A stretch of DNA of 64,000 bases from Escherichia coli (lineage in GTDB: Bacteria; Pseudomonadota; Gammaproteobacteria; Enterobacterales; Enterobacteriaceae): assembly GCF_044324875.1 (NCBI RefSeq), contig NZ_CP172185.1, one strand, 5' to 3'. Both the position numbers and the translations under genes were made by a program. A model generated the notes under the pieces. It did no database searches and had not been told where the DNA came from. It was given only the letters and a program-made list of their open reading frames with translations. This document shows, piece by piece, positions 28,901 through 28,949 of this stretch; the stretch's first letter is position 1; each line of letters opens with the position of its first letter.

Positions 28901-28907
28901 CAGGCGT

Positions 28908-28939
28908 AAAAAAACCGGGGAATTATCCCCGGCTTTTTT
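28908..28939. terminator. Bidirectional rho-independent terminator (yfeA / nupC convergent)
   Basis: aaaaaaaccgggg-aattat-ccccggctttttt. Confidence 0.6.
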
Positions 28940-28949
28940 ATGTATGGTC

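Follow-up and report, generated by a model that had tools for sequence, protein, structure and literature searches.

The target consensus of the insertion sequence IS186 was reportedly first defined by SaiSree et al. in 2001, with the lon promoter as a hot spot. The target has been described as 5′-GGGG(N6/N7)CCCC-3′ on the basis of 59 recovered insertion sites, and a total of 54 such motifs are present in the E. coli genome analysed in that work (Lee et al. 2016, PMC5009759). Upon insertion, the core bases of the motif are duplicated and the element can lie in either orientation (PMC5009759). Bidirectional terminators, in turn, are common at convergent E. coli gene pairs, and some of them are based on collision of the transcribing polymerases rather than on intrinsic release (bioRxiv 10.1101/2022.10.23.513370). 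The two subjects meet at the junction between pdeA (formerly yfeA) and nupC. In MG1655 (NC_000913.3), IS186C is annotated at 2514273-2515617, where its gene insL3 (b2394) lies between nupC (b2393) and pdeA (b2395), and W3110 carries IS186C at the same junction in the same orientation as MG1655.

Here, the corresponding junction was analysed in a 64-kb window, by which we mean the whole stretch of E. coli DNA under study. The locus, the flanking genes and the bases at 28918-28929, which are duplicated in K-12, are the same as at the K-12 IS186C site; however, the window is without the element and its flanking DNA is ~2-2.5% diverged. It is very probable that the window holds an intact, unoccupied site, which combines a terminator with an IS186 target, in a non-K-12 E. 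coli that has never been hit at this position.

The pdeA-nupC spacer and its hairpin

The convergent genes are separated by the 49-bp sequence CAGGCGTAAAAAAACCGGGGAATTATCCCCGGCTTTTTTATGTATGGTC, which makes up the entire interval 28901-28949. For pdeA, the mechanically called open reading frame starts at 26651 and the start annotated in homologues is at about 26711; the mechanical frame of nupC extends to 30191. The features of the locus are as follows.

26711-28900, plus strand: pdeA (formerly yfeA), putative c-di-GMP phosphodiesterase, from homologue annotation
28898-28900, plus strand: stop codon of pdeA
28901-28949, no strand: 49-bp spacer between convergent pdeA and nupC, unoccupied IS186C site
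28908-28939, no strand: bidirectional intrinsic-terminator-like element, from pattern scan and RNA fold
28908-28914: A7 run, giving U7 on the minus strand
28915-28921: left arm of the stem, CCGGGGA
28917-28930, no strand: IS186 target motif GGGG(N6)CCCC, GGGGAATTATCCCC, within the terminator stem
28918-28929: bases duplicated around IS186 in MG1655, W3110, E. coli C and others, single copy in the window
28922-28925: loop, ATTA
28926-28932: right arm of the stem, TCCCCGG, followed by a single C
28934-28939: T6 run, U-tract of the plus strand
28950-28952, minus strand: stop codon of nupC
28950-30152, minus strand: nupC, nucleoside:H+ symporter, 1203 bp per homologue annotation

The hairpin has a 7-bp stem with six G-C pairs and a 4-nt loop, and it begins 14 bp past the stop codon of pdeA and 17 bp past that of nupC. 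A terminator scan of the spacer detected the hairpin followed by a T-run on each strand. The predicted RNA folds of the spacer are stable on both the plus strand (-24.4 kcal/mol, z -4.9) and the minus strand (-23.4 kcal/mol, z -4.75), and none of 200 shuffled spacer sequences folded equally well. Thus, a stable GC-rich stem-loop, a U-tract 3′ of it on each strand and convergent stop codons upstream are all found together, and because a single hairpin is placed between A7 and T6, the element has the form of an intrinsic terminator in both directions. Judged from the sequence and the modelled fold, the hairpin should act bidirectionally, as a Rho-independent terminator that would serve pdeA on one strand and nupC on the other. 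It resembles the known Rho-independent bidirectional terminators of convergent genes in having a lone GC-rich hairpin flanked by an A-run and, at the opposite end, by a T-run, and no difference from them was found at the sequence level. The initial annotation had described yfeA and nupC as converging across a 49-bp spacer that holds only a bidirectional terminator; the length is exact, the two stop codons bound 28901-28949, and the single hairpin, positive in the pattern scan on both strands, agrees with the description.

A promoter-like match at 28897-28926 (9/12) was discarded as being at chance level, since two such matches were found against 1.0 expected. In the Rfam search, the spacer matched no known RNA family, and the only matches elsewhere in the window were tRNAs and an RtT RNA element. 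The latter (RF00391, 51.6 bits; 23062-23187, minus strand) adjoins the lysV-valY-valX-valU tRNA cluster, and RefSeq annotates an RtT sRNA at the matching place in KE55 and W3110.

The IS186 target and the K-12 insertion

The motif GGGG(N6)CCCC occurs once in 64 kb, at 28917-28930, and a search of the 64-kb window for the alternative GGGG(N7)CCCC gave no match. As this single, perfect motif is embedded in the stem, the empty site is a textbook target of IS186, and the hairpin stem doubles as the motif that the transposase recognises. At this position the motif itself, an element inserted at it with duplication of the core, and both orientations of that element are all observed in E. coli. In particular, the element is located between two copies of GGGAATTATCCC in MG1655, W3110, 510016, BUCT2930, 08-00022, E. 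coli C and 2013C-4991. The described IS186 hot spots share with this site the perfect motif, the occurrence of both orientations at one position and the core duplication (Lee et al. 2016), but at pdeA-nupC the motif forms the stem of an intergenic terminator and is not part of a promoter or a coding sequence.

Alignment of the window with MG1655 gave blocks that break at the site and overlap by 12 bp at 28918-28929 (GGGAATTATCCC), with 1349 additional bases in MG1655. In window orientation, the left junction of MG1655 reads ...AAAAAAACCGGGGAATTATCCC followed by ATAAGCGCTAACTTAAGGGTTG..., and the right junction reads ...CAACCCTTAAGTTAGCGCTTAT followed by GGGAATTATCCCCGGCTTTTTT.... The direct duplication flanking the MG1655 element is 10 bp, GGAATTATCC, or up to 12 bp, GGGAATTATCCC; this length is ambiguous because the ends of the element match the target, so that it is 10 bp if the terminal C and G are assigned to the element and up to 12 bp otherwise. 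When the element core (1337 bp) is cut out of MG1655 together with one 12-bp copy of the duplication, the window spacer is restored at 49 of 49 bases. The 23-bp inverted terminal repeats of IS186, CATAAGCGCTAACTTAAGGGTTG, were not found anywhere in the 64-kb window with up to three mismatches allowed, and the spacer, only 49 bp long, holds neither such repeats nor an insL transposase gene. The initial annotation had stated that IS186 is absent between yfeA and nupC and that MG1655 has a copy (insL) at this junction. The absence is borne out by the short spacer and the lack of terminal repeats in the window, and the MG1655 copy is annotated as IS186C/insL3; MG1655 and W3110 are both occupied, and the MG1655 element is flanked by a direct duplication.

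Where IS186 has arrived, the central bases are duplicated. In MG1655 the element divides the hairpin, leaving no hairpin with a U-run at either junction. The predicted folds of the two junctions have energies of -9.4 and -10.2 kcal/mol with z near 0, which is no better than shuffled sequences, and the residual stem at the junctions is 4 bp and has no U-tract after it. We infer from these predicted structures that the native terminator of pdeA and nupC is lost in K-12 and retained in the window.

States of the site across E. coli genomes

The junction was surveyed in 5,426 complete E. coli genomes by means of queries that span it, and classes were set by a coverage threshold. Four states were distinguished.

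Uninterrupted site: 4,440 genomes, for example REL606 and EDL933
IS186 in the K-12 orientation: 472 genomes, including K-12 derivatives and the wild isolates 510016 and BUCT2930
IS186 in the opposite orientation, at the same position and with the same duplication: 465 genomes, including E. coli C, ATCC 8739, ML35 and 08-00022
IS200C (711 bp, without duplication) in the T-run directly after the hairpin: 19 genomes

About 27 genomes are outside all four classes. One of them is BS-01, whose 793-bp spacer was considered as a fifth allele and rejected, as its sequence looks like a truncated IS186 copy full of errors, from an assembly of low quality. With the K-12 junction query, the matches of SE15 and of an ST131 strain stop at the insertion point; the O157:H7 strains listed, whose sites are unoccupied, show the same pattern. 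The IS200C carriers comprise 18 swine isolates, two of them labelled O139:H1 and twelve named ETEC, and one genome of unstated source; in the ETEC4068 spacer, the insertion point is equivalent to 28938/28939 of the window. Together, the IS186 and IS200C insertions indicate that two unrelated IS families use the 49-bp spacer.

In three of the wild isolates examined, 510016, BUCT2930 and 2013C-4991, the transposase gene of the IS186 copy located here carries a pseudogene annotation, with an internal stop in one and frameshifts in the other two. Either decay of these copies or errors in the assemblies may account for the lesions.

The coincidence of the stem with a motif that the transposase targets explains the presence of IS186 at this site, in one orientation or the other, in K-12 and numerous further strains. 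How the two orientations are related is illustrated by E. coli C and MG1655, whose flanks are 100% identical (2276 and 2500 bp) and whose IS186 copies are also 100% identical, but inverted. This could reflect one of two histories: separate insertions into two close relatives, in keeping with the documented behaviour of IS186, or inversion in place between the identical 23-bp ends, a recombination that is suggested by the very combination of identical flanks with an identical, inverted element. In a broader and quite unlikely reading, the pdeA-nupC terminator is a recurrent natural landing pad of IS186 whose occupancy brings selectable changes in expression, or, alternatively, the orientation classes interconvert in place. 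If the landing-pad version were true, an IS186 copy of whichever orientation would deprive both genes of their terminator, and the transposase gene would come to lie downstream of nupC in the K-12 orientation or downstream of pdeA in the E. coli C orientation.

Source strain, rival readings and significance

The window aligns with MG1655 in four blocks that cover all 64 kb at 96.1-97.5% identity (~97.4% overall), from which it follows that its source is not K-12. Near 6827-6831, ~960 bp of MG1655 (2537705-2538665), including yfeS, are missing from the window, so that no yfeS lies between yfeK and cysM; a further 128 bp (~2543656-2543782 in MG1655, in the cysP-ucpA interval) are missing near 1839-1844. 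In fryA (38710-41204), the window lacks one base near 40263 (a G in GATCCAAAAAGC-ATCG) that both MG1655 and KE55 have, and this 1-bp deletion leaves two open reading frames of 554 and 322 aa. The surrounding 2,510 bp (38701-41210), which contain fryA, are 99.96% identical to KE55, the fryA gap being the only difference, and the deletion either marks fryA as a recent pseudogene or reflects an error in sequencing. The argument of the initial annotation that the source is not MG1655 thus stands on the divergence of the window, the absence of yfeS and the fryA deletion. KE55 is the closest of the 5,426 complete genomes, at 98.9% over 25 kb (20001-45000 of the window), and its differences are unevenly distributed, ranging from 0-4 per kb in places to 23-48 per kb in the stretches 25001-26000 and 35001-39000. 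Clustering of the differences in blocks points to a recombination mosaic. By alignment, no close relative of the source is present among the 5,426 genomes.

The initial annotation had further taken the junction for the uninterrupted ancestral site. That it is uninterrupted is confirmed; the ancestral state is proposed by parsimony only, since the empty site is the majority form across distant lineages (4,440 of 5,426 genomes, including REL606, EDL933, SE15 and ST131) and precise excision of insertion sequences is rare. The rival idea that the empty site is secondary, a former IS186 copy having been excised precisely so as to restore a single copy of the duplicated bases, draws on the fact that a never-occupied and a precisely excised site look alike in sequence, and on the recurrent use of this site by IS186. 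It is nevertheless very improbable: only one of 857 events in mutation-accumulation lines was a precise excision, and that one concerned IS3 (PMC5009759); the empty allele prevails across divergent lineages; and over 2.3-2.5 kb the flanks of the window share 98.1-98.8% identity with K-12, compared to 98.9-100% for the occupied loci examined. Copies of insertion sequences commonly cause assembly breaks, and the fryA deletion is a possible sequencing error, so that a collapsed or skipped repeat could be imagined as the origin of the missing IS186. We consider such an assembly artefact extremely improbable, because a perfect single-copy junction is not expected from a collapsed repeat and a 160-base stretch spanning the site matches the uninterrupted sites of complete genomes such as REL606 with 100% identity.

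The hairpin itself also admits a different reading, in which it is chiefly a pause site for colliding convergent RNA polymerases and not mainly an intrinsic terminator. Collision has been proposed as the mechanism of many E. coli bidirectional terminators at convergent genes, but the terminators of the collision class are described as unlike intrinsic ones (bioRxiv 10.1101/2022.10.23.513370), and the pdeA-nupC element carries the complete intrinsic signature on both strands, with its 7-bp GC-rich stem, 4-nt loop and U6 or U7 tract. This reading is therefore rather doubtful, although the two mechanisms could coexist. The preferred view is still that of an intrinsic terminator on both strands, unoccupied by IS186.

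In a contig scan beyond E. coli, the terminator 25-mer AACCGGGGAATTATCCCCGGCTTTT had its only match in NZ_VLXZ01000152.1, a 289-bp contig with 1.4x coverage. This exact match, in an assembly of Alkalicoccobacillus porphyridii, is almost certainly E. coli contamination.

All of the above follows from known facts: IS186C is annotated in K-12, the IS186 motif has been published, and the anatomy is that of an ordinary bidirectional terminator. The empty pdeA-nupC site provides a clean strain marker for non-K-12 E. coli, and it has little import beyond housekeeping. K-12 is the reference for most transcript maps, and since it would be without the native pdeA/nupC terminator, 3′-end data from K-12 at this junction would not be representative of the species. 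The practical point is that ~82% of sequenced E. coli would have a native pdeA/nupC terminator that is absent from K-12, and the locus illustrates how a terminator hairpin may double as the target of an insertion sequence.
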